Shown: positions 1-29,197, counted from the first letter of the stretch. The stretch: DNA of 64,000 nt from Spirochaetia bacterium (GCA_965226055.1 CBDDCA010000003.1:19954-83953), one strand, 5' to 3'. The notes: generated by a model from the letters alone, not told the origin. Program-made: numbers and translations.

Positions 1-41
1 TGTACAGTTATGTATATAATAAAAATGAGGAAGAGAAGAAT

Positions 42-2888
42 ATGGCAATGCAATTTGAAAAACAACGGTATCAAGATCAATGTGTTGATAATATTATTAC
101 AGTATTAAAAGAGTGTGATGTATATCAAAATAATTTTGACAATATGTCTAAAGCAATAGATACCCGTTTTAAAAAAAGTATGAGAAACCGTTTAGATGTA
201 TTGATGGAAACAGGTACAGGCAAGACATTTACGTACTTAAAAGCTATTTTTGAAATACATAAACATTTTAATAAAAATAAGTTTGTTATTATTGTTCCTC
301 GAAGAGCTATTAAACTTGGTGTTATTCAAAATATTGAACTTACAAAATATTATTTCTTTCAAGAATATGGAAAGTACTTATCGTACATTAACTATCCAGA
401 AGAAGGACTGGGAAAGATTGAACATGATTTTTTGAAAACGGATGATCTCACTATTTTGATTACTACTCATAGTGCCTTTAACTCTGATAAAAATAAAATT
501 AATCAAAGCACTGAAAGACTGTTTGAACATGGTTCTGTATGGCAAGGCATTAGAGAAAAACAACCGATTATCATTATTGATGAGCCACATCTTCTGAAAG
601 GGAGCAAGACACAAAAAGGCTTGGAAACATTAAACGATTCTCTGCAAATTCGTTTTGGTGCTACATTTCCTAAAGATACAAAAGATGAAGAACAACACCT
701 AAGCAATGTGGTATATGCTTTGGATAGCATATCGGCTTTTAATCAATACTTAGTAAAAAGAATTGCAGTAGATACAATTATTTCTGATAGTGAGCAAAGT
801 GAATTAAAGGTTACTGATACCAATAAAAAATCTTTTACTGTAATGTATGCTAAAAACTCAATTATATTTAAGGAAACTATTTTTATTGGGGATGATATTG
901 GAGCAAAAACAGGGATAAAAAAATATAATACTATTTCTGCTACAAAGATTAACAAAGGGAAAGTGTTTTTAAGTGATAAGTCCACTTTAGATATGAGTAC
1001 AAGCTACGATGTAACTGATATAGAAATTCGTCATATGGTGAAAAAGACTATTGAAAATCATTTTGAAAAAGAAGAGAAATTTTTTGAGAAAGGAATAAAA
1101 ACACTCTCACTCTTTTTTATTCCCAAGATTAAAGATTTTAGAGACAGTGACAATAAAAGTCCAAGAATAAAAAAGATATTTGAGCAAGAGTACAGAAAGC
1201 AGAGGGAAGTTATTTTTCGAGATACAAAAAATAAAATGTATAAACAATATCTATCGAAAGATATTTCGGAAGATGGCATGCTACAGGTACATGAGGGCTA
1301 TTTTTCGGGAGATAAAGGAAAAACGAAGGAGGACAGGGAAGCTGATGGGGTGAATATGATATTAAATGAAAAAGAAAAATTGCTTTCATTTGATACTCCA
1401 TTACGTTTTATTTTTTCCGTATGGGCTTTGCAAGAAGGGTGGGATAATCCCAATATTTTTACTATTTGTAAATTATCTTCTACCAGCAAAGATACCAGTA
1501 GGAGACAGCAAGTGGGGAGAGGCTTACGCATTGCAGTCAATCAAAAAGGGCATCGTTTTACCCATTTGTTTCTAAATGAAGACAAAGATGCATTTCATGA
1601 AATAAATACGCTGGACATAGTGGTGTCAGGAAAAGAAAAAGATTTTATAGAAGGAATTCAAAACGAGATTCAAGAAGCAAGTTTTTCTTTGGTAGGTGAT
1701 ACCATTACTTTAGAAAAATTAGAACAGTTAGGCTTTAATGATACAGAACGATGCTTTTTGTTTACAATATTGCTACAGAATGGTGTTATTGATCCTCAAA
1801 GAAAGATACGATCATCGTTATATGAGTTTTTGAAACATAACAAAGATAATCTCAAAGATAAACTTGCCGTTCTAGGTATATCTGAAACACGCTATCAAGA
1901 AATGCTAGATAAGTTTACAGAAAACACCTATCCTGTCACTGATAAAAACAAACTTCCTCAAGCAGTAAACATTAAACCAAAACAATGGGAGAGCTTCAAA
2001 GTACTATGGGAAACAATCAATAAAAAAGCAACCATCGTGTACAAAGACATTGAAGAGGAAAGCATTATAGAGCAAGTAGCAGAGTTGTTTAATAAAGAGT
2101 CTATAGAACCCGTGTCAATAAAAATACATAAAGCAATATATAACACTCAAAAAGATAAAATTGAATCTATACAAGAAGAAAGGCTTGAAGAGGTGAGTTT
2201 TTTTAAAGTACAAACGTATAGCGATTTTATCTCCTATTTTATGAAAGATGAAAAACTACCACTGCATTTTTTACTAAAGCTGTTCAATAAAATTGATATA
2301 CAGAAAATAAAGTGTGATCCTCAAAAAGCAAAAGAACATCTTTTACGTATCTTAAAAGAAACTATTCATACAAGTATTATCAATCAGGTATCGTATAATT
2401 TTAATGAAACAACTATTTATCCTAATAAATTGCAAGATAAAAAAGGAAATGCAATACAAAACATTAACTCCACACTACTTGGAAAATATCATACTTTAGA
2501 AGCAGAGCCAGAACATTTATTATATGATACTATTTGCTATGATTCAGATATAGAAAAAGAGCTTCAAAAAGAACCTTCCAACGTAAATAAACAAACAATA
2601 ACAGTTTTTGCAAAACTGCCTCGTATTTCTATTCCAACTCCGTATAAAAACTATAATCCTGATTTTGCCTATTTGATAGAAACAAAAGATTGCAAAAAAT
2701 TATTTTTGGTAGTGGAAACAAAAGGATATAAAAGAGAGGGCGATATTCCTATAGAAGAGCAGAATAAAATAGCATATGCTAAGAAATTTTTTGAGATCTT
2801 ACAGCAACAATTACCTGATATTGACATACAATACAAAACTCGTATTAGCACACAAAGTTTAAGCGATATTATAGAAAATAAACAATGA
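42..2888 (+). CDS. res: Type III restriction-modification endonuclease/helicase subunit (Res)
   Basis: 948-aa ORF. SF2 helicase motifs are METGTGKT (motif I), IIIDEPH (DEAH-like motif II), QEGWDNPN and QQVGRGLR (motif VI). A C-terminal PD-(D/E)xK-like signature is present (NPDF...VVETKGYK). A Mod-type methyltransferase lies downstream on the same strand. Confidence 0.85.
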   Translation: MAMQFEKQRYQDQCVDNIITVLKECDVYQNNFDNMSKAIDTRFKKSMRNRLDVLMETGTGKTFTYLKAIFEIHKHFNKNKFVIIVPRRAIKLGVIQNIELTKYYFFQEYGKYLSYINYPEEGLGKIEHDFLKTDDLTILITTHSAFNSDKNKINQSTERLFEHGSVWQGIREKQPIIIIDEPHLLKGSKTQKGLETLNDSLQIRFGATFPKDTKDEEQHLSNVVYALDSISAFNQYLVKRIAVDTIISDSEQSELKVTDTNKKSFTVMYAKNSIIFKETIFIGDDIGAKTGIKKYNTISATKINKGKVFLSDKSTLDMSTSYDVTDIEIRHMVKKTIENHFEKEEKFFEKGIKTLSLFFIPKIKDFRDSDNKSPRIKKIFEQEYRKQREVIFRDTKNKMYKQYLSKDISEDGMLQVHEGYFSGDKGKTKEDREADGVNMILNEKEKLLSFDTPLRFIFSVWALQEGWDNPNIFTICKLSSTSKDTSRRQQVGRGLRIAVNQKGHRFTHLFLNEDKDAFHEINTLDIVVSGKEKDFIEGIQNEIQEASFSLVGDTITLEKLEQLGFNDTERCFLFTILLQNGVIDPQRKIRSSLYEFLKHNKDNLKDKLAVLGISETRYQEMLDKFTENTYPVTDKNKLPQAVNIKPKQWESFKVLWETINKKATIVYKDIEEESIIEQVAELFNKESIEPVSIKIHKAIYNTQKDKIESIQEERLEEVSFFKVQTYSDFISYFMKDEKLPLHFLLKLFNKIDIQKIKCDPQKAKEHLLRILKETIHTSIINQVSYNFNETTIYPNKLQDKKGNAIQNINSTLLGKYHTLEAEPEHLLYDTICYDSDIEKELQKEPSNVNKQTITVFAKLPRISIPTPYKNYNPDFAYLIETKDCKKLFLVVETKGYKREGDIPIEEQNKIAYAKKFFEILQQQLPDIDIQYKTRISTQSLSDIIENKQ

Positions 2889-3958
2889 GAGAGACTATCC
2901 CTTTTACACCACAGCCTTTACCTCCTGACAATGTAGAGACTATTACAGCCCTAAAGCAAGCAACTAAGGCTCACCAAGCCTTAGCCGAGCTGAAAGGAAC
3001 TGCACATATTATTCCCAATGAAACTATTTTAATTGAAACGCTGATATTAAGAGAAGCAAAAGAGAGCAGTGCTATTGAAAATATCATTACAACACAGGAT
3101 GATCTCTACAAAGCAAAGTTATTTGATGAGTATAAAAATTTCTCTACAAAAGAAGTAGAAAACTATGTGCAAGGGATATTATTTGGATTTAATGTTGTAC
3201 GAGAAAAAGAAGTGCTTACTAATGCTACTATTATGGATATTCAAGAAATATTATTACAGAATACTGCAGGATTTAGAACGCAAGTAGGCACAACACTTAA
3301 GGACAATAATGGAAAAGTAGTATATACTCCACCACAAGACAAAGATAGTATCTTACATTTAATGAATAATTTAGCAGAATTTATCAATAACAATAATTTT
3401 TCTAATATAGACCCTTTAATAAAAATGGCAATAATACATTATCAATTTGAAAGCATACATCCTTTTTATGATGGAAATGGGAGAGTAGGAAGAATTATCA
3501 ATATTTTATATCTTGTATTGCAAAGGTTGTTAGATGTTCCTATTTTGTATTTAAGTAATTACATCATTGAGAATAAAGTGCAGTATTACACGGTGTTACA
3601 AGGCGTAAGAGAGAAAAACGATTGGGAAAGTATGATTTTATACCTACTTACAGGCATTGAAGTTACTGCTATTGAAACTATTGGAGTGATTAAAGAAATA
3701 GACAGATTAATGAAAAAATATAAGCAAGAAATACGGGAAAAATTACCTAAAATGTACTCCCAAGATATGATAAATAGCTTATTCAAGCATCCGTATACAA
3801 AAATAGATTTTTTTGCAAATGATTTGAATATTAGTTATCAGACTGCTCGTAAATACTTAAATAAAATTGATACAATAGGCTTATTGATAAAATTAAAAAT
3901 GGGAAAAAGCAATTATTATTTTAACTCAGAATTGATTGAGGTTTTGCGATGGAAATGA
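2885..3958 (+). CDS. fic: Fic family protein (class II-like, putative AMPylase) with Fic_N-type N-terminus and C-terminal wHTH-like tail
   Basis: 357-aa ORF. The canonical Fic motif HPFYDGNGRVGR (HxFx[D/E]GNGRxxR) is intact. An N-terminal inhibitory-helix motif SSAIEN ([S/T]xxxE[G/N]) is present. The start ATG overlaps the res stop codon (ATGA at 2885-2888). Confidence 0.85.
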   Translation: MRETIPFTPQPLPPDNVETITALKQATKAHQALAELKGTAHIIPNETILIETLILREAKESSAIENIITTQDDLYKAKLFDEYKNFSTKEVENYVQGILFGFNVVREKEVLTNATIMDIQEILLQNTAGFRTQVGTTLKDNNGKVVYTPPQDKDSILHLMNNLAEFINNNNFSNIDPLIKMAIIHYQFESIHPFYDGNGRVGRIINILYLVLQRLLDVPILYLSNYIIENKVQYYTVLQGVREKNDWESMILYLLTGIEVTAIETIGVIKEIDRLMKKYKQEIREKLPKMYSQDMINSLFKHPYTKIDFFANDLNISYQTARKYLNKIDTIGLLIKLKMGKSNYYFNSELIEVLRWK

Positions 3959-3964
3959 TACTAT

Positions 3965-4046
3965 ATTATACGAAAAAGGCATTTTGTATAAACGAAAGGA
4001 ATAACATTATACGAAAACGGCATTTTGTATAAACGAAAGTGATAAT
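3965..4046. repeat. 41-bp tandem repeat array, 2 units (array 1)
   Basis: Units are 3965-4005 and 4006-4046, consensus ATTATAC(A/G)AAAACGGCATTTTGTATAAACGAAAGTGATAAC. The consensus core is TATACAAAA-N6-TTTTGTATA; in both units of this array the left arm reads TATACGAAA, so the inverted repeat is imperfect here. Confidence 0.9.
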
Positions 4047-4177
4047 ATGTATGTAAATAAAAGAGAGGATAGACAAGTTATAGCGTATCCTGTGAAGAAA
4101 CTGTCTTATAGTATTGTAAAGACATTTATTAAGCGGGAGGATCATATAAACATTTTTGCTGATATTAGAAGGAAAGC

Positions 4178-4564
4178 ATGAAAGATAAGATAATAGAACC
4201 AATAGAAAATAAACCTGATGAATTTGATACATTTATAGCAAAAGCTGTAAATAAACAAGAGATACATAACCCTATAGAAAAGATTGATAAATCATTAGAA
4301 ATAATAAGTAATTCTGAAAAAGACTTTATTGTTTATGCAAGTGATGATGGAAATATAAATGTAAGGGTATTGATAGATAAAGAAAATGAGACTATATGGC
4401 TTAATCAAAAACAATTAGCGACTTTATTCGATGTTACTCCTCAAAATATTACTACTCATTTAAGAAATATTTTTGAAACTCAAGAACTAGAGGAAATTTC
4501 AACTTGTAAAGAAATTTTACAAGTTCAAATAGAGGGTAAAAGTACAATTTTCATCCTGAATTGA
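4178..4564 (+). pseudogene. Truncated RhuM-family (virulence protein RhuM-like) N-terminal fragment
   Basis: 128-aa ORF. The segment NINVRVLIDKENETIWLNQKQLATLFDVTPQNITTHLRNIFETQELEE matches my recollection of the conserved RhuM N-terminal region. Full-length members are about 300+ aa. The ORF ends where a duplicated copy of the fic 3' end (from 4558) is joined out of frame. Confidence 0.55.
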
Positions 4565-4594
4565 TTGAGATTTTGCGATGGAAATGATACTATA

Positions 4595-4758
4595 ATTATA
4601 CAAAAACAGCATTTTGTATAAATGAAAGCAATAACATTATACGAAAACGGCATTTTGTATAAACGAAAGTGATAACATTATACAAAAACGGCATTTTGTA
4701 TAAACGAAAGTGATAACATTATACAAAAACGGCATTTTGTATAAACGAAAGTGATAAT
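4595..4758. repeat. 41-bp tandem repeat array, 4 units (array 2)
   Basis: Units are 4595-4635, 4636-4676, 4677-4717 and 4718-4758, the same consensus as array 1. The array lies immediately upstream of the mod start and its AGAGAGG ribosome-binding region. Confidence 0.9.
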
Positions 4759-4787
4759 ATGTATGTAAATAAAAGAGAGGATAAGCA

Positions 4788-6670
4788 ATGATAGATAAAA
4801 CACAAGCACAGCATCATGGAATAAACACCATAGACAGCACACATACAAAAAGTACACACAAAAACGAAACAATAGAGAAGCTAAAAAAACTCATTCCAGA
4901 GATAGTAAGTTCTGATGGACAGCTAAACACAGAAGCGCTGAAAGATGTTATAGATATTTCACATACTACTGCCAACAACAAAGGCTATGAGCTTACCTTT
5001 GCGGGCAAAGGCATTGCGAAAGCAAAAGCAAGCAGTGAGACGAAGTATGAGTTACAAGTAGAACATAAGCAAAGCAAACAATTTGATACTACAGGAAACG
5101 TGGTAATACGTGGTGATAATATAGAAGTGTTGAAAATACTCAAACAAAACTACTTTGGGAAAATAAAAATGATATATATTGATCCACCATATAATACAGG
5201 GAATGATGATTTTATTTATAACAATAATTTCAAAAAAAATGAAGAGGAACTGATTGAGAATTTTGGCTTAGATGAAAATACTACCAACTTTTTACACAAT
5301 GTATATGGAACAAAAAGCCATAGTGGATGGCTTGCCTTTATGTACCCACGCTTAAAACTTGCAAGAGAATTACTTACAGAGGATGGTGTTATTGTTATAG
5401 CAATAGATCATTATGAATTAAATAATCTCACTTGTATTGCAGATGAAATTTTTGGCGAAGAAAATAGGTTGGGATTAGTTAGTGTTGTACATAAAGCAGA
5501 AGGAAGAAATCAAGCAAAATTCTTTGCACCAAGTAATGAATTTATGCTTTTTTATGCTAAAAATGAAAAAAAATGTAATTTCAATACTGTAGCCATAGAT
5601 CATAAAGTAGTTGAAACTTTTGATAAAGAAGATAAGTATGGAAAATATAGACTAAATAATTATCTAAGAACGGGAGGTGGTGATACTGATTTGCGAATAA
5701 ATAAACCAGAGTTTTTTTATCCTATTTATGTAAGTGAGAATTTACAAATTATAAGTTTGGATAAAATAGAAGGATATTATGAGGTATTACCAGTTACAAA
5801 CGGAAAGCAAGAGAGAACATGGAAAACAAAAAAGAAACTTTTTACCAAAATATGTTAGCAGGAAACATTATAGTAAAAAAAGAAAATGATAAAATTCAAA
5901 TTTATGAAAAGTACAGAGAACAACAGATATTAAAAACATATTGGCATCAGACAAAATATCATGCTATCCATCACGGAACAAATAGAATACTCAAATTATT
6001 AGGCAAAAAATGTTTTGATTTTCCAAAATCAGTGTATTTAGTTCAAGATATCTTAAAAATTGTCACCAATTTTAACGATCTCATCCTAGATTTTTTCGCA
6101 GGCTCTGGTACTACAGGCGATGCGGTAATGCAACTTAATGCTGACGATGGCGGTAATAGAAAATTTATTTTAGTACAGTGGGATGAAAAGATAGACAAAA
6201 AGAAAAATAGCGAATCCTATACATTTTGTACGGAAAATAACTTTAAGCCTGTCATCTCCAGCATTACCATAGAACGCTTACATCGTGCAGGAGAAAAAAT
6301 AAAAGCAGAGAAAAAAGCAGATGCATTGGATATAGGCTATAGAGTGTTTTCTCTTACCCCTAAACCGCAGCTTATTGAAGATGAAAATACAGTATTCCAA
6401 TTAGAACATGCCCGTACAGGCACGATACATACACTTGTAAATATGCTATGTGCTACAGGTAAGCCTCTGCACAGTACTATCGAAGAGAAAGAAAAAGACA
6501 TCCTATATAGTGTCGATGATACGATATTTGTACTAGGTAATATAAGCACTAACATAGTAGAGGATATGAAAGATAAAATGATTTATATTGATGGATATAG
6601 TGACATATCTTTAGAGTATTGGCTAAACTTAAATATATCAAATAGAGATAATATAAAGATAGTGTATTAG
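4788..6670 (+). pseudogene. mod: Type III R-M DNA methyltransferase (Mod, beta-class N6-adenine/N4-cytosine MTase) interrupted by a frameshift
   Basis: Two overlapping ORFs, 4788..5858 and 5819..6670. Motif IV IYIDPPYNTG is in the first and motif I FFAGSGTTGDAV is in the second, which is the IV-TRD-I order typical of Mod. Adding one A to the A6 tract at 5828-5833 gives one continuous 627-aa reading frame (...ERTWKTKKETFYQNML...). Confidence 0.8.
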
Positions 6671-6689
6671 AATGTAACAAGGAGTTAGC

Positions 6690-8357
6690 GTGAAAATTTA
6701 TGTTGAAACAAGCAACAGACCTTTTAGTGAAATAATAGGTAATAGTAAGCGATACATTGTGCCAAAATATCAACGTAACTACTCTTGGGATTATGAACAA
6801 TTAGAAGATTTATGGGATGATTTAGAAGCTATATATAATAATGCTAATGACAAAGAGCGTGAGGAACACTATATGGGATACTTAGTGTTAAAAGAAATTC
6901 AAAAAAATAATAAATTTGAGATTATTGATGGTCAACAGCGAATTACAACACTAACACTATTAGTACTGGCTATATTACAAATTTTAAAAAAACAAAATGA
7001 ACAAAGCCGTTTAGATAATATCCGAGAAAATTTCATCATATATAAAAGAATGGACGATCTTGTTGAAGAATATAAACTTGAACTTAATAAAAATAACGAT
7101 AAATATTATAAAGATAAATTAGTCTCATTAACCGAGAATCCAAAAAACCGAAATTTAATAGCTTCAAATAACTTATTAAGAGAAGCCAAAAAATTTTTTC
7201 AAAAAAAATTAGAAGAAAAAAATTTATCTCCACAGCAATTAGGAGAGTTTTTAAGTGTTGTATTTAATGGGTTACTATTTACCGTTATGACTATTGATGA
7301 TGATGTAAATGCATATAAGATTTTTGAAACCTTAAATGCGAGAGGGGTAGAGTTATCTATACCAGACTTATTGAAAAATTATCTTTTTTCTGTAGCTGAT
7401 GAACATTCAGAAAATTTGATTGATGATTTTGAAGATAAATGGCATGATATTATCGTATCTTTAGGAGATTCTGATTTTACTAAGTTCATAAGAGTACAAT
7501 GGAATAGTTTATATAAATTTAGTACAAAAGCAGATCTTTTTAAAACTATAAGAAATGAAATTAAAGAACCAGAAGATGCAAAAAATTATATTATAGCCAT
7601 ACATAAAGATATGGATGTGTATGTATCATTACAGAATTATAAGGATGATATGTGGAAAGAATATACTGAGGAAGTGAAGGAATGTATACATATGCTCAAG
7701 ATATTTAGTATTGTGCAGCCTCTGGGGGCTTTGCTGAGAGCCTTTAAAATATATCCTAAAAAAGATTTTGAAAAATTTTGTAAATATGTATTAGCATTTT
7801 GTATGCGATATAATGTTATTTGTAATTTACCACCCAATCAGCTAGAGCCGTTTTATAGTAAGCTATCTCACAGCATATCAAAAAAGCCATCGCTAAACGA
7901 TATTAAAATGAAATTTAAAAAATCATATGTTGATGATGAGCGATTTAAAAAAAGTTTTGCTTATAAAAGTATGGTAGAACCCAAAAAAGCCATATATATC
8001 CTTTCTTCTTTAGAAAACCATATAAATAAAAGCAATAGAATACACTCTGAAGATTATACACTAGAGCATATATTACCAAAAAAAGAACCTACAGATGATA
8101 CTTATTGGAGTGAACAGTTTAGGAATTCAAAGCAACAAGATATTGAGAAATTAGGAAATTTTACTCTCTTACGAAAGAAAGACAATGAAAAAGCAAGCAA
8201 TGGTTCTTTTGATGAAAAAAAGGAAATTTATAAAAAAAATACATTAAAAATTTTACAAAAGATTTGTGAGTATAAAGATTGGAATCATAAGAGTATTTTA
8301 GACTATCAGCATTGGCTAGCAGACATAGCGGTAGAAAAATGGAATATTCAATTTTAG
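6690..8357 (+). CDS. DUF262/DUF1524 protein (GmrSD-like, putative Type IV restriction / defence nuclease)
   Basis: 555-aa ORF with a GTG start 6 nt after AAGGAG. The N-terminal DUF262 signatures are VPKYQRNYSW and IDGQQRITTL. The C-terminal His-Me/HNH-like DUF1524 signature is LEHILPK...GNFTLLRKKDNEKASN. It starts 19 nt downstream of mod. Confidence 0.8.
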   Translation: MKIYVETSNRPFSEIIGNSKRYIVPKYQRNYSWDYEQLEDLWDDLEAIYNNANDKEREEHYMGYLVLKEIQKNNKFEIIDGQQRITTLTLLVLAILQILKKQNEQSRLDNIRENFIIYKRMDDLVEEYKLELNKNNDKYYKDKLVSLTENPKNRNLIASNNLLREAKKFFQKKLEEKNLSPQQLGEFLSVVFNGLLFTVMTIDDDVNAYKIFETLNARGVELSIPDLLKNYLFSVADEHSENLIDDFEDKWHDIIVSLGDSDFTKFIRVQWNSLYKFSTKADLFKTIRNEIKEPEDAKNYIIAIHKDMDVYVSLQNYKDDMWKEYTEEVKECIHMLKIFSIVQPLGALLRAFKIYPKKDFEKFCKYVLAFCMRYNVICNLPPNQLEPFYSKLSHSISKKPSLNDIKMKFKKSYVDDERFKKSFAYKSMVEPKKAIYILSSLENHINKSNRIHSEDYTLEHILPKKEPTDDTYWSEQFRNSKQQDIEKLGNFTLLRKKDNEKASNGSFDEKKEIYKKNTLKILQKICEYKDWNHKSILDYQHWLADIAVEKWNIQF

Positions 8358-8526
8358 TGTAATTACAATACTACCTCTCTGTATTTCTCCTTTTGTACGC
8401 CTCTACATCCATAATAGTAATTGACTATTATACGAACAAAAAAGTATATATACATATATCATCTAAAAAACCATTGCAATTTCCATCTCAAATTGATTGA
8501 AATTTTGCTATGAAAGTGATATTATT

Positions 8527-8597
8527 ACTATGTAGAAATAGCATTTTGTATAAACGAAAGCAGTAACATGATACAAAAATGGCATTTTGTATAAATG
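8527..8597. repeat. 41-bp repeat array, about 1.7 degenerate units (array 3)
   Basis: ...GTAGAAATAGCATTTTGTATAAACGAAAGCAGTAAC followed by ATGATACAAAAATGGCATTTTGTATAAATG. The array is preceded (8491-8519) by a decayed copy of the fic 3' end. Confidence 0.7.
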
Positions 8598-8619
8598 TAC
8601 AGAGGAGTTGCTAGGAATT

Positions 8620-10803
8620 ATGATTAACAAAATAACGATAAATAATATAGCAAGCTATAAAGAAGAAACTTTTTTAGAGACTAAAAAGAAAGTAAATCTT
8701 ATTTATGGACTAAATGGTACAGGCAAAACAATTTTATCCAGTTATTTACAGGATATGGAAAATGATAAATATAAAGATTGTGGGATTGAAGGATTTGATG
8801 CAAACAAGCAAAAGATATTAGTATATAACCAAAAATTTGTAGATGATAAGTTTGATGGCAATGAAACACAAAGAGGAATTTTTACCTTAGATAAAGATAA
8901 TAAGGAAGCACTATCAAATATAGACAAAGCAACACAACAAAAGAAAATTTTGGAAAGCAAGTTACAGGAGGAAGGAAATGCTTTAAGTGATCAGAAAGCA
9001 CAAATAGACGAGAATCATAGTACAGCAATAGAAAATATTTGGGAAATAAAGAAAGAATATGAACATGGTGTATTTGATTTCTGTTTAGAAGGATATAAGA
9101 GGAAAGATAAATTATTTGAATATTTGCTGAGTAGGAATCTAGAAGAATCAACTAAAAGTATTAAAAGTATAGAAGAAGAGTTGTTAGAATTAGGAGAAGG
9201 AGCGAATCCAAGAGAAGAATTAAAAGAAATTACCTATGACAGTAATATAGAAAGTAATCAGATTTTTCAAGAAGGAATTATAGGTAATGAAAATAGTGCT
9301 GTTTCTAATCTAATAAAAGAATTAAAAAATGCTGATTGGGTTAGAAAAGGTTTGGGTTATGTCAATTTAAAAGAAAGGGAGAATTGCCCTTTTTGTCAAG
9401 AGAAGACTATGACTAAAGAATTGGTAAGTGAGATTGAAAGCTATTTTGATAAGACATATGAAGAAAAGATTACTCAAATAAAAAAATTAAAAACCGAATA
9501 CCAAAATTTTAGGGATAATCTAAATTTAGATAGTTATAAAAGAAATTTTTTCAAAGACTATCAGAATTTAGAAATTGAAAAATTATTTAATAGTGTAACT
9601 AAAATTTTAGATGATAATTTGGAAAAGATTAAGAAAAAAATAAGTCAGCCAAGCCAGATAGTAGAATTAGAATCAAGTAAAGAAGCAATACAGAAGGTAA
9701 ATCAAATAATCCAAAATAAAAATAAAGAGATTGAAGCATTTAATACGAAATTAACAAATAGAGAGCAGACAATTCAAGAATTAAAAGAAGATTTTTGGAA
9801 AATTCAAAGAAAAAAATACGACAGAGATATTTCTAACTATAATAATAAGAAACGAACATTACAAAAAGAGCAAGATAATATAAACAAAGAAATTGAAGAT
9901 ATAAGCAAACAAATTAAGGAACAAAATAGAATTATTAAGGAGAATCAAAGAAAAACAACCAGTATAGAAACTGTAATTGACAAAATTAATGTTCATTTAT
10001 CAGATTTTGGAATAAAAAATTTTAAGATTGTAAAGAATGATGAAAAAACTTATAAAATTGAAAGAACAGGAGAAGATGAAATTAATAAAATTGAGAGAAC
10101 GGGAGAAGATGAAAATAAATTTAAATCACTAAGTGAAGGAGAAAAAACCGTTATCAGCTTTTTGTATTTTGTAGAGTTATGTATTGGAAAAGAAAATACA
10201 GAAGACATTAAAGAAAAAATTGTTGTAATTGATGACCCTATGTCAAGTTTATCCCATATGTATGTCTTCAATGTAGCACAGCTTATTAAAACACATTTTA
10301 CAAAAAACAGTGACAAAAAGAGCGAGGTTAAACAATGTTTTATTTTGACGCATAGTCTATATTTTTTCTATGAACTAATGGATAAAAAAAAGAAGGAGGA
10401 AGAAGAAAAACAAGGGTTATTTAGAATTACCAAATCAGATAGCAGTAAGATTGAAGAAATGAAACGTAATGAAATCCAAAATGAATATGATTCTTACTGG
10501 GATATAGTGAAAACAGCAAATGAAGCAAATAGATTTATAGTAGCTAATGCTATGAGAAATATCATAGAGCATTTTTTTTGTTTCGTTGATAAAGAAGAAA
10601 GTATAAATAATATTTTTCAGAAAGAAGAATTTAAAGGCGATGAATATCAATCTTTTAGAAGATACATAGAGAGAGAATCACACTCCGATAGAACAAATTT
10701 TAGTGACAGCAAAGAAATTAATATAGAATTTTTTAAGAAAGCATTTAGGAAGGTTTTTGAAGAGGCAGATTATAAAGAACATTATGACAAATACATTAAA
10801 TGA
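8620..10803 (+). CDS. AAA_13-type ABC/Rad50-like ATPase, RloC/PrrC-like candidate anticodon nuclease
   Basis: Walker A is GLNGTGKT. A roughly 450-aa charged coiled-coil-like insert contains CPFC (CxxC). The ABC signature is LSEGEK and Walker B is IVVIDDPMSSLS. The C-terminal MRNIIEHFF...ESHSDR gives an R-x3-E...H arrangement. The track ORF starts at TTG 8587 inside repeat array 3. ATG 8620 (MINKITINN...) with upstream GAGGAG is the more plausible start. Confidence 0.7.
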   Translation: MINKITINNIASYKEETFLETKKKVNLIYGLNGTGKTILSSYLQDMENDKYKDCGIEGFDANKQKILVYNQKFVDDKFDGNETQRGIFTLDKDNKEALSNIDKATQQKKILESKLQEEGNALSDQKAQIDENHSTAIENIWEIKKEYEHGVFDFCLEGYKRKDKLFEYLLSRNLEESTKSIKSIEEELLELGEGANPREELKEITYDSNIESNQIFQEGIIGNENSAVSNLIKELKNADWVRKGLGYVNLKERENCPFCQEKTMTKELVSEIESYFDKTYEEKITQIKKLKTEYQNFRDNLNLDSYKRNFFKDYQNLEIEKLFNSVTKILDDNLEKIKKKISQPSQIVELESSKEAIQKVNQIIQNKNKEIEAFNTKLTNREQTIQELKEDFWKIQRKKYDRDISNYNNKKRTLQKEQDNINKEIEDISKQIKEQNRIIKENQRKTTSIETVIDKINVHLSDFGIKNFKIVKNDEKTYKIERTGEDEINKIERTGEDENKFKSLSEGEKTVISFLYFVELCIGKENTEDIKEKIVVIDDPMSSLSHMYVFNVAQLIKTHFTKNSDKKSEVKQCFILTHSLYFFYELMDKKKKEEEEKQGLFRITKSDSSKIEEMKRNEIQNEYDSYWDIVKTANEANRFIVANAMRNIIEHFFCFVDKEESINNIFQKEEFKGDEYQSFRRYIERESHSDRTNFSDSKEINIEFFKKAFRKVFEEADYKEHYDKYIK

Positions 10804-10887
10804 AAAAAATATTTCAATTAGAACATCCACCTCCTCCCCCCATAACTTCAATACATGATATAATAATAGTATATATATTTATGGAGG

Positions 10888-12207
10888 ATGTGTATGATTC
10901 AATATGTAAAAAAAGCATTGCAAGTAAGTGATATAGGGCATGTTGATACAAAAGTAAAAGAAACAGTAGAGTCTATCTTACGAGACATTACTCAACGAAA
11001 AGATAATGCAGTAAGAGAGCTTTCACAGAAATTTGACAACTTTAATCCGCCTCAGTTTAGACTGAGTGAGCAGGAAATACAACACTGTCTTTCACAGGTA
11101 ACGAAAGAGGATATGGAAGATATCACCTTTGCGTACAATCAGATTAAGTACTTTGCTGAACAACAAAAGGCTATGTTTAAGGACATAGAAGTAGAGCCTT
11201 ATCCTGGAGTTATTCTTGGTCATAAAAACATTCCTGTAAATTCTGTTGGATGTTATGTGCCAGGGGGAACACATCCATTTATAGCTTCTTGTTTTATGAG
11301 CATCCTCACAGCTAAAGTTGCTGGAGTAAAACGCATAGTAGCATGTGCGCCACCGCAAAACGGAAAGCCTCATCCTCTTGTTATTGCTGCTATGCATTTA
11401 TCAGGAGCAGACGAGATATATCTTCTTGGGGGAGTGCAGGCCGTTGCAGCTATGGCAATAGGCACAGAAGAAATAGCACCTGTAGACATGATTGTAGGTC
11501 CAGGAAATGCCTTTGTAGCAGAAGCAAAACGACAGCTCTTTGGAAGAGTTGGCATAGATTTGTTAGCAGGCCCCACCGAAACCTTAGTTATTGCAGATGA
11601 CACAGTTGATGCCGAGCTATGTGCTACTGACTTATTAGGACAAGCAGAGCATGGACCTACTTCTCCTGCAATATTATTGACAAACTCAAAAAAGCTAGCA
11701 GAAGAAACATTGAAAGAAATTGATCGCTTATTGACCATACTTCCTACTGCAGATGTCGCAAAAATATCTTGGCAAGACTATGGCGAAATTATTGTATGCG
11801 ATACATACGAGGAAATGCTTGCTGAATCTGAGCGTATTGCATCAGAACATGTACAAGTGATGACCAGCCGTGATGATTGGTTTTTGGAACACATGGTAAA
11901 CTATGGAGGCCTCTTTATTGGTGAGCGTACCAATGTTGCATACGGAGATAAGGTGATAGGCACCAACCATACCTTGCCTACCCGTAAAGCAGGACGCTAT
12001 ACAGGAGGACTCTGGGTAGGAAAATTCATTAAAACGCACAGTTATCAACGAGTGACAAGTGATGAAGCCACAGTACATATTGGAGAGTACTGTTCAAGAA
12101 TCTGCCATATGGAAGGCTTTGCAGGACATGCAGAGCAAGCGAATATACGACTTCGTAGATATGGCAAAAAAGATGTTCCGTATGGTACTCCTGCCACAAA
12201 GGAATAA
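10888..12207 (+). CDS. Histidinol dehydrogenase family (HisD-like) NAD-dependent dehydrogenase
   Basis: 439-aa ORF. HisD-type motifs are [39 protein letters not shown] and [13 protein letters not shown]. No other his genes are nearby, so it may be a paralog with another substrate. The alternative start ATG 10894 lies 6 nt after GGAGG. Confidence 0.75.
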
Positions 12208-12243: not shown

Positions 12244-13083
12244 ATGATAGAACAAATATTTAGCTTAAAAGGAAAAAAAGCCATTGTAACAGGAGCAACA
12301 GGGTCTATCGGATATGCCTGTGTGCAAGCACTACTATCTTTTGGAGCTTCGGTGCTTATAGTAGGAAGAAAGAAAGAAAAACTTATTGAGATAGAACAGC
12401 GTCTACAAAAAGATATGCTACAAACATCTCATCATAATGCTACTCAGCATGCTCCTAATCATCAGACTGTTCATCAGAATAAGGTACAAGCACAATCTCA
12501 TCAGCTTGATTGTAACGATATAGCTGCAATGAAAAAATTTTTTTCCAATCACAATGATACAGACATCTTTGTCAATAGTGTAGGCACTAACATACCAAAG
12601 CCTTTGCTTGAAATGAGCGAACAAGACTATGACACGCTTATGGACACAAATGTAAAAAGTGCTTTTTTTCAAACACAGTGTTTTGTAGCAGCAAAGACAG
12701 AAAAAGAAAAAAGAACTACTCAGTCATCTCCTGCATCGATTATTCACATATCTTCACAGATGGGATTTGTAGGAGGCGATGAGCGTAGCATATATTGTGC
12801 AAGTAAACATGCCATGCAAGGTATGTGTAAAGCCATAGCCTTAGAAATAGGAAAGTGGAATATGCGTATCAATACTATTTGTCCTACTTTTATTGAGACA
12901 GAGCTTACACGTTCTACGCTTGTCGATGCAGAGAAACGAAAAAAAATAACCCAATCTATTGTCTTTGAACGTTTAGGTGAACTACAGGACATATACGGAG
13001 CGGTAGTATACTTAGCCTCTGATGCCTCTCGTTTAGTAACAGGCACTGCAATAACAGTAGATGGCGGATGGACAGCACGATAG
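12244..13083 (+). CDS. Short-chain dehydrogenase/reductase (SDR) family oxidoreductase
   Basis: 279-aa ORF. It has the TGxxxGxG-type motif GATGSIGYA, the catalytic YCASKHAMQG (YxxxK) and the C-terminal VTGTAITVDGGWTA. It contains a His/Gln-rich insertion. Confidence 0.8.
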   Translation: MIEQIFSLKGKKAIVTGATGSIGYACVQALLSFGASVLIVGRKKEKLIEIEQRLQKDMLQTSHHNATQHAPNHQTVHQNKVQAQSHQLDCNDIAAMKKFFSNHNDTDIFVNSVGTNIPKPLLEMSEQDYDTLMDTNVKSAFFQTQCFVAAKTEKEKRTTQSSPASIIHISSQMGFVGGDERSIYCASKHAMQGMCKAIALEIGKWNMRINTICPTFIETELTRSTLVDAEKRKKITQSIVFERLGELQDIYGAVVYLASDASRLVTGTAITVDGGWTAR

Positions 13084-13089
13084 GGGAGC

Positions 13090-13362
13090 TTAGTTATTTT
13101 TTCTCATAGATATTTCTTTCTCTATATCTCTGTCTACAGAGTTAGTAAGACTATCAATTTCAAGCCCCATACCTTCTATTATTCTTTGATTTTCAACTTT
13201 CAAGGTTTCTAAAAATTCTGACTTATTCCACAGCCTATTTTTATTACCAAATCCATCTTCAGTAACATCCTGCAATGTACTTAAGTAAGATATGTGCATG
13301 ACAATTAATACTATCAGGCTTACCTCTCTTACCTGTTCTGTTGGGTACATGTATGGCCACAT
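13090..13362 (-). CDS. Hypothetical 90-aa ORF, possibly a gene remnant
   Basis: ORF only. Its last codons (IEKEISMRK) and the underlying 27 nt are identical to the 3' end of the SnoaL-like gene ending at 14438. Confidence 0.25.
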   Translation of the reverse strand: MWPYMYPTEQVREVSLIVLIVMHISYLSTLQDVTEDGFGNKNRLWNKSEFLETLKVENQRIIEGMGLEIDSLTNSVDRDIEKEISMRKNN

Positions 13363-21983: not shown

Positions 21984-24900
21984 ATGAAATTATTGAATAT
22001 ATCATATATATTTTTTATCGTTTTTGTGTTTTCACTTTTCACTTGTGAAAATGACAATGTAGGAAGCGGAGGAAGTAACAACGCTATTGATTTAAGTAGT
22101 GTGGCATCTCCCCCGCTAGATGTAACGAATATTACTAACAGTATTGTGAATGGTAATATTGTGTTAAAGTGGCAAGTTCCAGCCCTTACTACTAATCTTA
22201 AAAGGAAAGATGGCAAAACACTCACAAAGGCAGATATATCTTACAAAGTGTATCGAGTAGTAAAGGGAGCAAAGAGCCGAACAATAGCCCAGATTAAAAC
22301 AGTGGATAAAAAACCGATAACAGTAGCAAAGGGAACAACAAGTACAACTATAAGTAATCTTACTGGAAATACAACATACGAGATAGTAGTGCAGGCAGTA
22401 AATTCTACAGATACCACAAAAGTCTCTACAGGAGTGAGAGCAGAAGTTACTACTTTATCCTCTGCAACTGCTCCCGCAGAAGTAAGCACTATTACTGCAG
22501 GCAGTACAACGGCTAGCAGTACAGTTATATCATGGACAGCCCCAACGCTTGATACTAGCCACAAGAAAGCAGACGGCACAGCACTGACAAAGGCAGATGT
22601 GTCTTACAAAGTGTATCGAGTAGCAAAGGGAAGCGATGAGCGAACAGTAGCACAAATAAAATCAGCAGACACAAGCCCGCTAGCAGTAGCAAAGGGAACA
22701 ACAAGTACAACTATAAGTAACCTTACAGGCAGTACAACATACGAGATAGTAGTGCAGGCAGTCAATTCTACTGATGCCACAAAAGCCTCTATAGGCAAGA
22801 GAATAGAAGTTACTACTACTGTTATAATAAATCAAGCCACCGCACCCGCAGAGGCAAGCACTATTACTGCAGGCAGTACAACAGCTAGCAGTACAGTTAT
22901 ATCATGGACAGCTCCAACGCTTGATACTAGCCACAAGAAAGCAGACGGCACAGCACTGATAAAGGCAGATGTATCTTACAAAGTGTATCGAGTAGCAAAA
23001 GGAAGCGATGAGCGAACAGTGGCACAGATTAAGACAGCAGATACAAGCCCGCTAGCAGTAGCAAAGGGAACAACAAGTACAACTATAAGTAACCTTACAG
23101 GGAATACAACATACGAGATAGTAGTGCAGGCAGTAAATTCTACTGATACCACAAAAGCCTCTATAGGCAAGAGAATAGAAGTTACTACCACGAACCCTGC
23201 AACTGCCCCCGCAGAAGTAAGTGCTATTACTGCAGGCAGTACAACGGCTAGCAGTACAACGCTATCATGGACAGCCCCCACGCTTGATACTAGTCACAAG
23301 AAGGCAGACGGCACAGCACTGACAAAGGCAGATGTGTCTTACAAAGTGTATCGAGTAGCAAAAGGAAGCGATGAGCGAACAGTAGCACAGATTAAGACAG
23401 CAGACACAAGCCCGCTAGCAGTAACAAAGGGAACTATAAGCAAAACTATAAATAACCTTACAGGCAGTACAACATACGAGATAGTAGTGCAGGCAGTCAA
23501 TTCTACCGATATCACAAAAGCCTCTACAGGCAAGAGAATAGAAGTTACTACTCTAAACCCCGCAAATGCCCCAACAGAAGTAAGCACTATTACTGCAAGC
23601 AGTACAACAGCTAGCAGTACAGTTATATCATGGACAGCTCCAACGCTTACTACTAGCCATAAGAAAGCGGACGGGGGAAGGCTTACAACGGCAGATGTAT
23701 CTTACAAAATATATCGAGTAGCAAAGGGAAGCAAAGCCCGAACAGTAGCAGAGATTAAGAGAGTAGACCCGACTCCACTAAAAGTAACAAAGGGAACAAC
23801 CCGTATAACTATAACAAACCTTAATTATAATACCGCCTATGAAATAGTAGTACAAGCAGTCAATTCTACTGATACTACAAAAGTCTCTACAGGAATACGA
23901 AAAGAAGTTACTACTAATCGTATACCTAATATAGCCACCGCCCCAACAGAAGTAACCAATATCACCGCAGGCAGTACAACGGCTAGCAGTACAGTTATAT
24001 CATGGACAGCCCCCACCCTAACAAACAGTCACAAGAAAGCAAACGGACAAAATCTTACAACGGCAGATGTATCTTACAAAATATATCGGGTAGCGAAGGG
24101 AAGCGATGAGCGAACAGTAGCCCAGATTAAAACAGCAGACACGACTCCGATCGCAGTAGCAAAGGGAACAACAAGAACAACTATAAGTAACCTTACAGGA
24201 AGTACAATATACGAGATAGTAGTGCAGGCAGTCAATTCTACCGATACCACAAAAGTCTCTACAGGAGTGAGAGCAGAAGTTACTACTCTAAACCCCGCAA
24301 ATGCTCCCGCAGAAGTAAGCAATGTTACTGCTGGAAGTACTACCGATAAAAGAATAGAAGTAACATGGCAAGCACCAACGCTTACTAATGATCACAAGAA
24401 GGCAAACGGAGAAACACTAACAACGGCAGATGTATTTTATAAAGTGTATCGAGTAGCAAAAGGAAGCGATGAGCGAACAGTAGCAGAGATTAAAACAGCA
24501 GACACAAGCCCGTTAGAAGTAGCACGGGGAATAACTACTGTATTTATACCCAACCTTACAGGCAGTACAACATACGAGATAGTAGTGCAGGCAGTCAATT
24601 CTACCGATACCACAAAAGCCTCTACAGGAGTGAGAGCAGAAGTTACTACTACTAACCCTGCAAATGCTCCCGCTGAAGTAAGCAATATTACTGTAGGCAG
24701 TACAACGGCTAGCAGTACAACGCTTTCATGGACAGCCCCCACGCTTGATAATAGCCACAAAAAAGCAAACGGAGAAACACTTACAACGGCAGATGTGTCT
24801 TATAAAGTGTATCGTGTTGCAAAAGGAAAGAATGCCCGAGATGTAGCAGAGATTAAGACAGCGGATAAAAGCCCGTTAGCAGTAGCAAAGGGAACTATAA

Positions 24901-28295: not shown

Positions 28296-28451
28296 TACAT
28301 ATATATTGTATATAATTAAGTAGTGTAATGATGGTAGAATTTGTATATTTTTCTCCTAATAAATGCAGATATTAGAGTATAATTTTTTCTATCATCTTTA
28401 CACTTTGAAAAAGAATAATTTTTGAATAGGAGGCTGCAATGAAATTATTGA

Positions 28452-29018: not shown

Positions 29019-29050
29019 TATGATTAAATATATGGTACTTTAGTATTACC

Positions 29051-29089: not shown

Positions 29090-29197
29090 TTACCGAAAGC
29101 AAAAGAGCTAATTTTTATAAAATCGGTAAGTATTTATTGCAGGTACATATAAAATAACTTCTACTAAGCATATTTGAGAAAGGAGTTTTGTTATCTC

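Follow-up and report, generated by a model that had tools for sequence, protein, structure and literature searches.

A res-first Type III restriction-modification island with nested defense genes and fic-linked palindromic repeat arrays in a Spirochaetia bacterium

The stretch of Spirochaetia DNA analyzed here (64,000 nucleotides, referred to as the window) carries a horizontally acquired chromosomal anti-phage island, located between map and hisD, whose scaffold is a Type III restriction-modification (R-M) system in the order res to mod. The island mainly extends a known principle, the nesting of defense genes inside other defense systems, to Type III R-M, and arrangements of this kind are known; we regard the island and embedding part of the reading as very probable. 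The junctions inside the island also carry tandem arrays of 41-bp palindromes that are linked to fic and that were previously unreported. Taken as a whole, the reading of the locus as a Type III embedding island with operator arrays for Fic has, in our judgment, a slightly better than even chance of being correct.

Gene content and genomic setting

ORF calls bore out the original prediction of six defense genes on the same strand, which lie head to tail on the + strand between positions 42 and 10803:

42-2888, + strand: res, Type III restriction subunit, 948 aa, apparently intact
2885-3958, + strand: fic, class II SoFic-type AMP-transferase with a C-terminal wHTH, 357 aa
4178-4564, + strand: rhuM', the first 124 codons of a RhuM/PDC-S05 gene, truncated at 4548
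4788-6670, + strand: mod, Type III methyltransferase with a -1 frameshift in the A6 tract at 5828-5833 (ORFs 4788-5858 and 5819-6670)
6690-8357, + strand: gmrSD-like gene, Type IV nuclease of the HEC-06 type, 555 aa
8620-10803, + strand: AAA_13 / PDC-S06 ABC ATPase of putative RloC/PrrC-like architecture, 727 aa (ORF 8587/8620-10803)

The family assignments of all six products hold in profile searches with Pfam and PADLOC, which had been proposed as a check, and with NCBIfam, with RhuM represented by an N-terminal fragment from which the Pfam RhuM domain is absent. The GC content is 0.25-0.32 in the island compared to 0.36-0.42 in the flank. The island adjoins hisD, and the flank in the window consists of hisD, an SDR gene and transport genes. 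No tRNA genes were found in the 64-kb window, and the island is therefore without a tRNA-linked integration site; no recombinase or integrase was found in the island or adjoining it within the window, which disfavors an integron-like or shufflon mechanism. In Flavobacteria, tyrosine integrases adjoin related fic genes.

The Type III genes

Type III R-M systems are distinguished by ATP-dependent cleavage at inversely oriented unmethylated sites and by Mod hemimethylation, and a beta-class N6_N4 Mod with a TRD is required both for methylation and for targeting Res. The island Res combines an SF2 helicase (ResIII) with a C-terminal endonuclease domain, as expected for Type III; it has Pfam matches to ResIII, DEAD and a C-terminal RE_endonuc, matches PADLOC REase_III over its full length (1e-121) and contains the Walker A motif GTGKT. 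Alignment with NCBIfam PRK15483 was end to end at 468 bits, which is below the equivalog cut-off of 564. The stop codon of res overlaps the start codon of fic in an ATGA, through which fic is predicted to be translationally coupled to res.

The mod gene had been predicted to carry a frameshift, and this was confirmed and mapped to the A6 tract at 5828-5833, with the frame junction between 5834 and 5846. The two ORFs cover positions 11-296 and 322-581 of the PADLOC MTase_III profile, one part per ORF, with the DPPY motif in the N-terminal ORF and the FAGSG motif in the C-terminal ORF. The frame is broken within the TRD (approximately 5465-6074), so that the window lacks an intact Mod even though all domains are present. 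In a computed repair, one added A (A6 to A7) restored an uninterrupted Mod of 627 aa.

Like the canonical Type III systems EcoP1I and EcoP15I, the island encodes a Res with an SF2 helicase and a C-terminal PD-(D/E)xK-type endonuclease domain, and a beta-class N6-adenine methyltransferase Mod with a central TRD. Unlike these systems, in which mod is followed by res, the window has res ahead of mod, the two separated by 1.9 kb of passengers, and mod is frameshifted in the window strain. The gap between res and mod, predicted to be about 1.9 kb of accessory genes, measured 1,899 nt.

The accessory genes

Fic shows the features of a SoFic-type protein, i.e., a Fic_N domain with (S/T)xxxE(G/N), the core HxFx(D/E)GNGRxxR and a C-terminal wHTH. 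Its own motifs are HPFYDGNGRVGR (core) and SSAIEN (inhibitory). Matches were found to Pfam Fic_N, Fic and SoFic-like_C and to PADLOC SoFic (1e-111, 372 bits), and homology to the SoFic structures 3EQX/9TCH in the PDB is full-length (1e-68); the NCBIfam score, 335 bits, falls short of the equivalog cut-off (550). When viral contigs were scanned for Fic, a single-protein scan returned nothing and an alignment-based scan worked.

The SoFic-like, wHTH-containing Fic protein CccR binds palindromic DNA as a dimer with its DNA-binding helices 70 A apart and represses transcription (PMC9755527), SoFic dimers show specific DNA binding (10.64898/2026.07.09.737422), and the activity of CbFic2 is switched by DNA binding (PMC10628234). 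The island Fic shares with these proteins the class II Fic AMP-transferase architecture, and theirs are dimers that bind DNA via the wHTH. There is precedent for both EF-Tu AMPylation, by SoFic, and sequence-specific DNA binding by the dimer, and for the island Fic both are predictions (10.64898/2026.07.09.737422, PMC9755527, PMC10628234).

The rhuM' ORF matches PADLOC PDC-S05 on aa 41-124 only, and no match to Pfam Virulence_RhuM (PF13310) was found in it. It is 95-97% identical at the nucleotide level to the first third of an intact rhuM (385 aa) at locus L001 of a related genome, the product of which has the Virulence_RhuM domain at 1.5e-100. The gmrSD-like gene starts 19 nt past mod, and its product has Pfam GmrSD_N and GmrSD_C, matches PADLOC HEC-06 (8e-167) and shows the GmrSD-like motifs DGQQR (residue 80) and EHILP (residue 459); motifs of these types have been shown to be essential in HEC-06. 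For the AAA_13 gene, the most likely start codon is the ATG at 8620, as opposed to the TTG at 8587. Its product matches Pfam AAA_13 at 1e-114, and PDC-S06 is its best PADLOC family (1e-226); the match to PADLOC PrrC is limited to the P-loop (29.5 bits), and no sequence relatives were found in the PDB. RloC and PrrC are recognized by an ABC ATPase head, a coiled-coil insert with a CxxC hook (in RloC) and a C-terminal HEPN-type Rx4-6H. The AAA_13 protein carries GLNGTGKT, CPFC at 256, IVVIDD and RNIIEH.

Decay and mosaicism relative to a close relative

Exact-sequence searches with the Res, Fic and HisD of the window returned no entries. A related Spirochaetia genome, in which hisD is 95% identical, holds the same island between map and hisD (L001; the site is the same in L001 and L043). 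The whole gene set is conserved in L001, where both rhuM and mod (609 aa) are intact. A second Mod paralogue in this relative's genome is an orphan and not a second island.

The window copy of the island is partly dead, with rhuM reduced to a stump and mod frameshifted, which leaves Res without its targeting partner; no such damage is apparent in Fic, GmrSD or AAA_13. Neither this partial decay nor the repeat arrays at the junctions featured in the original prediction. An alternative is that the mod frameshift represents a sequencing error in a homopolymer, in which case the R-M system would not be decayed, or a reversible A6/A7 phase switch; either way, the Type III system would be working or could be switched on. 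The lesion alters the length of a poly-A tract by one base, a seventh A restores the full Mod, and mod is a classic phase-variable gene in Type III systems; in addition, the TRD is unlike that of the relative, as seen in phasevarion allele families. A phasevarion mod is expected to carry a long simple-sequence tract of a length that differs between or within strains, however, and A6/A7, the one candidate tract here, is short for a contingency tract. No same-TRD sequences with another tract length were found for comparison, the nearest sequences to the repaired Mod being 63-68% identical, and the rhuM truncation, a second and unambiguous lesion, argues for ongoing decay. Overall, we consider a functional or switchable mod somewhat unlikely.

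Comparison of the window with L001 showed identities of 95% for hisD, 94% for res/fic (92% for the Res amino acid sequence), 91% for the mod flanks, 82% for gmrSD and 86% for AAA_13; the TRD is unrelated to the L001 allele and unalignable, and identity drops across the arrays. The right half of the island is mosaic. The rhuM gene is truncated exactly at a duplicated module formed by the fic 3' end and an array, an IS has inserted into the half unit of array 3 in L001, separating gmrSD from AAA_13, and the arrays consist of 2, 4 and 1.5 units in the window and of 5, 0.5 and 1 units in L001. The mosaic identity, the site of the rhuM truncation, the IS and the strain-variable repeat counts all fit the suggestion that the locus is a hotspot where defense cassettes are exchanged.

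Nesting of defense genes in Type III loci

The res-first order, which had been described as unusual, is real, as map and htrA-like genes and no mod were found upstream of res in L001; the order itself is common among relatives (L006, L007, L008, L029 and L125). Nested genes are likewise common among relatives and lie between the Type III genes in L004, L007, L008, L009, L029, L032 and L048. The proposed neighborhood comparison found that Fic recurs in this position, in at least five loci, including L029 (res..res'-fic-mod), L032 (mod-ATPase-fic-res) and L048 (mod-fic-res, in a different Type III clade), and RhuM is found between res and mod in one (L008). In L033, fic adjoins mod-res, and the nested genes in L004, L007 and L009 are other than Fic or RhuM. 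The only passengers found to recur inside Type III loci are Fic (several loci) and RhuM (one locus), with SoFic-type fic recurring in unrelated lineages and in both gene orders.

In the window, the genes enclosed by res and mod, all on the + strand, are fic and rhuM'; gmrSD and AAA_13, placed downstream of mod, are consequently adjacent rather than embedded. Embedded defense genes have been reported for Type I R-M, BREX, DISARM and Hma (Payne, Hughes, Fineran and Jackson 2024, 10.1101/2024.01.29.577857), and embedding in other defense systems is already published for PDC-S04, PDC-S05, PDC-S06 and HEC-06; the hosts covered by that survey did not include Type III (10.1101/2024.01.29.577857). The PADLOC PDC-S and HEC models were built from embedded defense genes. 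As in the cases of Payne et al., of PrrC in the EcoprrI Type Ic hsd locus and of BrxU in BREX, accessory genes in the same orientation are nested in a host system, and a modification-dependent nuclease is found alongside a modification-blocked system. The island shares Fic (PDC-S04/SoFic), RhuM (PDC-S05), AAA_13 (PDC-S06) and the GmrSD-like protein (HEC-06) with the set of Payne et al. It differs from all of these cases in that only fic and rhuM are truly nested, with gmrSD and AAA_13 placed after mod, and in that a repeat module is shared between the junctions.

The original prediction also raised an undescribed multi-layer system, in which the six proteins would be one obligate, co-transcribed and interdependent unit. 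The shared orientation and tight spacing (the res/fic overlap and the 19 nt between mod and gmrSD) as well as the conservation of the complete set in L001 are consistent with such a unit, and no strong + strand terminators were found between the genes. However, the cargo varies by locus: the full set was seen in two close relatives only, and in more distant loci res and mod are retained, but the passengers differ, are fewer or are missing. HEC-06 and SoFic-type proteins act as single-gene defenses, the window strain lost rhuM and probably mod and yet keeps the other genes, and gmrSD and AAA_13 are separated by an IS in L001. One obligate system is thus most improbable. Rather, each gene is very probably an independent defense module that rides with the R-M system and is not a subunit of one machine, with a GmrSD-type Type IV nuclease coupled directly behind mod and the putatively RloC-like AAA_13 protein closing the island.

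Palindromic arrays at the island junctions

Three tandem palindrome arrays were found in the window, upstream of rhuM', mod and AAA_13. Each transcription unit after fic opens with the same module, which consists of a fic 3' end and 1.5 to 4 tandem 41-bp units:

3911-3965, + strand: module copy 1, fic 3' end with promoter-like TTGAGG-17-TACTAT; direct-repeat family D3
3965-4046, + strand: array 1, two palindromic units of 41 nt, TTATACGAAA-n6-TTTTGTATAA, with a vestigial mod-type leader behind them (4047-4077)
4549-4594, + strand: module copy 2, second fic 3' end (encoding YNFHPELIEILRWK*) fused to the truncated rhuM, with promoter-like TTGAGA-17-TGaTACTAT at 4565-4593
4595-4757, + strand: array 2, four 41-nt palindromic units (period 41, 4.0 copies, 95% matches by TRF), followed by the mod leader and RBS
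8472-8526, + strand: module copy 3, degenerate and fic-3'-end-like, a D3 copy at 67% identity, with promoter-like TTGAAA-17-TGaTATTAT at 8497-8525
8527-8595, + strand: array 3, a half unit and one full unit (GATACAAAAATGGCATTTTGTATA)

Within the 64-kb window the arrays are confined to the island, and the palindrome pattern has 7 matches in the window compared to 0 expected by chance. Promoter-like matches are no commoner in the region than in shuffled sequence, and inspection of the units by eye found no consistent match to a Bacteroidetes-type promoter (TTTG / TAnnTTTG). A coding function of the arrays is ruled out by the 40- and 41-nt periods, which break the frame. A metagenome scan with the exact window palindrome, a pattern too strict for diverged arrays, gave 19 single contig matches, which represent chance matches with no related flanks or island proteins.

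Comparable arrays accompany fic in other bacteria. Tandem palindromic units with a period of 40-42 bp begin 0-15 nt past the fic stop codon, co-oriented with fic, in all nine independent loci (9/9) in which Fic is at least 57% identical, and arrays also follow fic in L044, L045 and L048 (Fic 50-55% identical) and in the L093 group (32%). Overall, the Fic homologues that arrays follow range from 32% to 94% in identity and belong to several phyla; by comparison, none of 300 random 450-nt windows reached the array score at period 40-42. Ten different arm sequences were found at a constant period, and the arms track differences in the wHTH recognition helix, a covariation that is confounded by phylogeny.

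Possible roles of the arrays

The likeliest of the readings is that the arrays are operator arrays for Fic; its own chance of being correct is about even, and binding, regulatory effect and promoter activity are all predicted. A single Fic dimer would occupy each palindromic unit as its operator, with its two wHTH recognition helices contacting the lineage-specific outer arms, whose centers are about 20-23 bp apart, and with the inner A-tract, GC core and T-tract as the spacer. The 40-42-bp period, corresponding to four helical turns, would set successive dimers on one face of the DNA. Bound Fic could control read-through or initiation into rhuM, mod-gmrSD and AAA_13, and Fic itself may be held on the DNA by the array. 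In three loci, TATAC and TGCAA palindromes are mixed in one array with a single fic gene, which is awkward for one sequence-specific reader.

The known sites of CccR and SoFic are single operators upstream of their own fic, whereas 2-12 tandem units are found here downstream of fic, preceding other genes, and binding by the island Fic is a prediction. In addition, the CccR operator has the form 10 bp, N26, 10 bp, and its 26-bp spacer differs from the geometry proposed for the island units. The cellular DNA sites and the regulatory role of SoFic-like wHTH domains are still poorly defined, and the array represents a concrete candidate DNA target for them that is conserved across phyla. If the arrays are operators, this would explain a possible co-regulation of the cassettes, and the same modules would also promote cassette exchange.

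The arrays could instead act as RNA, forming both the 3' UTR of fic and the 5' leader of the next gene, with hairpins that stabilize or process the polycistronic mRNA or serve as a repeat-RNA antidote to Fic, as in Type III toxin-antitoxin systems. Their position immediately past the fic stop codon and constant co-orientation with fic would fit such a role, as would compensatory substitutions in the arms, which occur even inside one array, and an excess of G:T over A:C mismatches in the units on the + strand (21 vs 4). Single units fold as hairpins, with z down to -3.5. Furthermore, the toxicity of E. coli Sofic is neutralized by a downstream element, the 47-aa product of which could not be purified (PMC12249575). 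On the other hand, the hairpins are weak and AU-rich (mostly -4.5 to -9 kcal/mol), the stability of a whole array is not significantly greater than that of shuffled sequence (z = -1.7), and no Rfam family was found at a permissive threshold in positions 1-11000. The period of 40-42 nt is also fixed despite varying stems and loops, which, together with the A-tract and T-tract, is the prediction of a constraint by DNA face. Taken together, an RNA role appears decidedly unlikely.

Toxin genes are tightly linked to tandem repeats of about 36-45 nt in the Type III toxin-antitoxin systems ToxIN and CptIN as well. Those repeats lie upstream of the toxin gene and are pseudoknot RNAs processed by the endoRNase toxin; here, the arrays are downstream of fic, and Fic is an AMP-transferase and not an RNase. 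ToxIN and CptIN repeats are also not palindromes with A/T tracts, whereas the island units form simple AU-rich hairpins. The downstream position, the absence of an endoRNase and the lack of an Rfam match thus place the island outside the Type III toxin-antitoxin systems.

It could also be argued that the arrays have no function of their own and represent a minisatellite, or a scar left by recombination, that is carried along with fic and matters only as patches of homology driving gain, loss or duplication of cassettes. The unit counts that differ between close strains, the rhuM cut at the duplicated module, the IS inside an L001 array and the fall in identity across the arrays would all be expected in this case. 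A neutral satellite, however, would not keep dyad symmetry, the 40-42-bp period, the layout of A-tract, GC and T-tract and the position past the stop codon, all of which are maintained across the Fic lineages despite complete sequence turnover. We therefore regard functionless arrays as very improbable.

A broader form of the operator reading, which is rather unlikely at present, is that a SoFic-type fic and a cis array of 40-42-bp wHTH operators form a two-part module that silences Fic and gates the downstream genes. By binding the AMP-transferase, the array would hold it on the chromosome in a silent state and thus serve as a DNA "antidote" or sensor, and Fic could be released when phage attack degrades or remodels the host DNA; Fic would thereby be the controller of Type III R-M subunits and embedded cassettes. 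Such a module, if real, would represent a new regulatory logic for defense islands and would provide a physiological role for the Fic wHTH.

The closest regulatory parallels to operator arrays for Fic are the RptR repressor of a Type I R-M / DarTG2 island (PMC12255303) and the C-proteins of Type II systems, in which an island-encoded DNA-binding protein acts on repeated palindromes to control island genes. RptR (PMC12255303) and the C-proteins are small dedicated HTH proteins that act at the operon promoter; by comparison, the candidate regulator here is a toxin/effector, and its putative sites are arrays at internal junctions.

Gene content of the island

The island at window positions 42-10803 has a Type III system as host, with other defence genes embedded in it or adjacent to it. 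The embedding of defence genes in other systems has already been published by Payne et al. (10.1101/2024.01.29.577857), who derived the PDC-S and HEC models and validated HEC-06. Their host systems did not include Type III R-M, whereas the island described here is hosted by such a system, and a literature search of a limited library returned no publication about embedding in Type III systems. ORF calling showed a head-to-tail series on the plus strand, and profile searches (Pfam, PADLOC, NCBIfam) backed each of the six family calls of the original prediction, whose observation of six same-strand defence genes was correct.

42-2888, plus strand, Res: ResIII helicase and RE_endonuc (REase_III, 1e-121)
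2885-3958, plus strand, Fic: Fic_N, Fic and SoFic-like_C (PADLOC SoFic, 1e-111)
4178-4564, plus strand, RhuM-like stump (rhuM'): N-terminal part of PDC-S05 models only, with no RhuM domain in the Pfam search
4788-5858 and 5819-6670, plus strand, Type III Mod, split (profile searches)
6690-8357, plus strand, GmrSD-like protein (HEC-06, 8e-167)
8620-10803, plus strand, AAA_13 ATPase (PDC-S06, 1e-226)

The Fic protein shows homology to SoFic crystal structures over its full length (1e-68). A motif scan found its catalytic motif HPFYDGNGRVGR and its inhibitory motif SSAIEN; it also found DPPY and FAGSG in Mod, the catalytic motifs DGQQR and EHILP in GmrSD, and Walker A, Walker B, CPFC and RNIIEH in AAA_13. 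The res stop overlaps the fic start (ATGA), and mod and gmrSD are spaced by 19 nt. GC content is 0.25-0.32 in the island vs 0.36-0.42 outside; the right flank carries hisD, an SDR gene, SnoaL-like genes and an ABC transporter, and a tRNA search of the 64-kb window found none. The AAA_13 gene contains an in-frame 33-nt tandem duplication (10052-10118; copies 91% identical), which doubles an 11-aa segment (KIERTGEDE...).

The same island in a close relative

A scan of contigs with Res, using one genome per species, identified L001, a Spirochaetia MAG (chromosome of 2.36 Mb) whose Res is 92% identical to that of the window. Here, htrA-like and map genes on the minus strand are followed by res, fic, rhuM, mod, gmrSD, an IS transposase gene, AAA_13 and then hisD, with rhuM and mod (609 aa) both intact. 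L001 has no mod upstream of res; the res-first order is therefore real and does not result from where the window is cut. Nucleotide identity between the window and L001 is 95.3% in hisD, 93.8% in res, 94.5% in fic, 97% in the 5' part of rhuM and about 91% in the mod flanks, 82% in gmrSD and 86% in AAA_13, and the mod TRD is not alignable. These identities show that the island is ancestral at this site; its right half either was exchanged or diverged at a much higher rate than the core genome. Of the two readings originally offered, an exchange hotspot is upheld and a single undescribed multi-layer system is not.

The IS element (L001:19217-20430), absent from the window, encodes a 373-aa HTH and rve transposase between terminal inverted repeats GTAGTTTTACCGTTTCGTGTGA / TCACACGAAACGGTAAAACTAC. 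The L001 genome also carries, on contig L124 (10001-11827), a Type III-like Mod that shares 75% identity with its island Mod and is an orphan, with no res nearby. A giant fn3/DUF285 gene near this orphan mod resembles one at window 21984-31190, where an fn3-repeat protein of 2,103 aa is followed by a DUF285/fn3 protein.

Decay of mod and rhuM

The island is partly decayed in the window strain. Homologous Mods align to the window mod in frame 1 until 5834, their alignment resumes at 5846 in frame 3, and the A6 tract at 5828-5833 is the sole candidate lesion between these frames; one additional A would restore an uninterrupted Mod of 627 aa. Because the break parts motif IV from the AdoMet motif, mod as sequenced should be inactive. 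A Type III Res without Mod has no targeting partner. The RhuM ORF shows 95-97% DNA identity to the first third of the relative's intact 385-aa rhuM and the rhuM sequence ends at 4548, where the second repeat module takes over and encodes YNFHPELIEILRWK*, so that the rhuM stump ends in a fic C-terminus. Recombination involving this module therefore truncated rhuM. The mod leader and RBS, TGATAATATGTATGTAAATAAAAGAGAGGATA (4758-4787), also precede rhuM' (4047-4077), with the ATG replaced (GGATAGACAAGTT), a pattern suggesting that the ancestral junction was fic-array-mod and that the insertion of rhuM into it duplicated the leader.

Recurrence of the architecture

The res-first order and the genes between res and mod, both originally considered unusual, recur among loci of Res and Fic homologues. 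Where Res is more distant (43-61% identity), the order is mod-res in L002, L003 and L005 and res-mod in L006 and in L125, where two tandem Mods lie behind res (res-mod-mod-DUF4917). Intervening genes are found in mod-X-res loci (a Schlafen/AlbA_2 + HATPase_c_4 gene in L004, three small ORFs in L009) and in res-X-mod loci (a 190-aa unknown in L007, RhuM in L008). The neighbourhoods of the closest Fic homologues, with the units of the arrays described below, are as follows.

L029: res ... res'-fic-mod; 3+1 units
L030: fic beside Type I/IIG genes; 6 units
L032: mod, AAA_21 ATPase, fic, res; 2+2 units
L033: mod-res-fic, on a Pontibacter plasmid; 3 units
L037: 12 units
Flavobacteria: fic directly behind a tyrosine integrase; about 8 units, irregular, in L038 and 2 in L040-42
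L048: mod-fic-res; its Mod and Res share only about 33% identity with the window's

L029, L032 and L048 show that Fic nesting within Type III systems is recurrent, with either gene order and across different Type III clades. L029 is a nested insertion in a nested island: a duplicated res 3' end abuts fic (3088-3356 and 7709-7977, 94% identical), and between it and the intact res lie a 420-aa gene and a Type II R-M cassette of two N6_N4 methyltransferases and an NgoFVII/PLD nuclease. In the Flavobacterium-type contigs (L038:5678-8650, L040-L042), a Fic of the same clade and its array directly follow the tyrosine integrase and precede an HTH_17 (excisionase-like) gene, a position that looks like an integrative-element edge; mobile elements thus also carry the fic-array module as cargo.

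Arrays linked to fic

The unexpected element of the island is an operator-like array linked to fic, which is widely recurrent; no description of it was found in the literature, although the library was limited and this is not proof of novelty. In the window, it forms part of a composite module present in three copies, each of which opens with a stretch of about 55 nt similar to the 3' end of fic.

3911-3965, plus strand, copy 1: the true fic 3' end, followed by 2 units before rhuM'
4540-4594, plus strand, copy 2: 85% identical to the fic 3' end, followed by 4 units before mod
8472-8526, plus strand, copy 3: 67% identical to the fic 3' end, followed by 1.5 units before AAA_13

The opening part holds a promoter-like TTGAGA/TTGAAA-17-TGnTAyTAT (a consensus match only) and is followed by tandem 41-nt units with the dyad TTATACAAAA-n6-TTTTGTATAA. 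This palindrome has 7 matches in the island and 0 in the rest of the 64 kb (expectation 0). The same junctions in L001 carry 5, 0.5 and 1 units, and the IS element lies inside the half unit of its third array.

All inspected Fic homologues of at least 57% identity have a tandem dyad array with a period of 40-42 nt, starting 0-15 nt past the fic stop. Among 80 Fic-encoding contigs from a viral collection, arrays also occur behind Fic at 50-55% identity (L044, L045, L048) and, at an identity of just 32%, behind the group of L093 and relatives. No array follows six further homologues of 50-53% identity (L034-36, L046, L047, L050). When one rule was used for all scoring, none of the 300 random windows reached the array score at period 40-42. 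The outer arms vary by lineage (TTATAC, TTTGC, TTTAC, TTTATAAG, AACGG, TGTACC, TATGCACAAG, TGTACAT, TGTACCCG, AACTC), and the inner layout is constant (A-tract, GC-rich core of 4-7 nt, T-tract). This design, conserved across phyla despite sequence turnover, is hard to reconcile with a purely neutral satellite. The putative wHTH recognition helix covaries with the arms, in a correlation that ignores phylogeny: (S/V/A)YxTAR(K/R)YL with TTTA/TTTG arms, (E/Q)R(K/R)xAx(K/R)YL with GTAC arms and SRRTALNYL with AACGG arms. L030 also carries, at 9651-9876 and 12767-13153, two kinds of element unrelated to the fic arrays: a separate tandem repeat of 42 nt, which has a GC-rich hairpin (GGGCGGGTTAAAACCCGCCC) and lies within a called ORF of 203 aa, and REP-like palindromes (GTAGGGACAAGTCGCGACTTGTCCCTAC) on both sides of a Y1-transposase-like gene.

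Possible role of the arrays

SoFic-like Fic proteins have been shown to be dimers that bind DNA through a wHTH (PMC9755527, 10.64898/2026.07.09.737422). CccR footprints a palindrome and represses transcription, with DNA-binding helices 70 A apart (PMC9755527); SoFic dimers bind specific DNA, and SoFic AMPylates EF-Tu (10.64898/2026.07.09.737422). The activity of CbFic2 is switched by DNA binding (PMC10628234), and the toxicity of E. coli Sofic is countered by an element directly behind it (PMC12249575). In the arrays, the centres of the lineage-specific outer arms are separated by 20-23 bp (about 68-78 A, two helical turns), and units recur every four helical turns. Together, these precedents, the arm spacing and the four-turn period suggest that Fic may act as a gatekeeper, parked on candidate operator arrays. 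In the simplest reading, each unit would hold one Fic dimer, with dimers stacked along one DNA face; Fic would gate rhuM, mod-gmrSD and AAA_13 from arrays that lie ahead of these cassettes, just downstream of the promoter-like element.

Known Fic sites lie upstream, whereas the arrays are downstream of fic, and some arrays mix two arm types beside a single fic gene; both count against Fic operators. So does the excess of G:T over A:C mismatches on the plus strand (21 to 4), which an RNA hairpin would permit. The idea that the arrays act as RNA hairpins is weakened, however, by the weakness of the hairpins, by whole-array folds not significantly better than those of shuffled sequence and by the lack of an Rfam match. 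On the minus strand (3965-4745 and 8568-8595), each palindromic unit is also a promoter-like match (TTTATA-16-TATAAT, 10/12); antisense transcription entering fic or rhuM' could start from these matches, or they may be a mere consequence of the AT-rich dyad.
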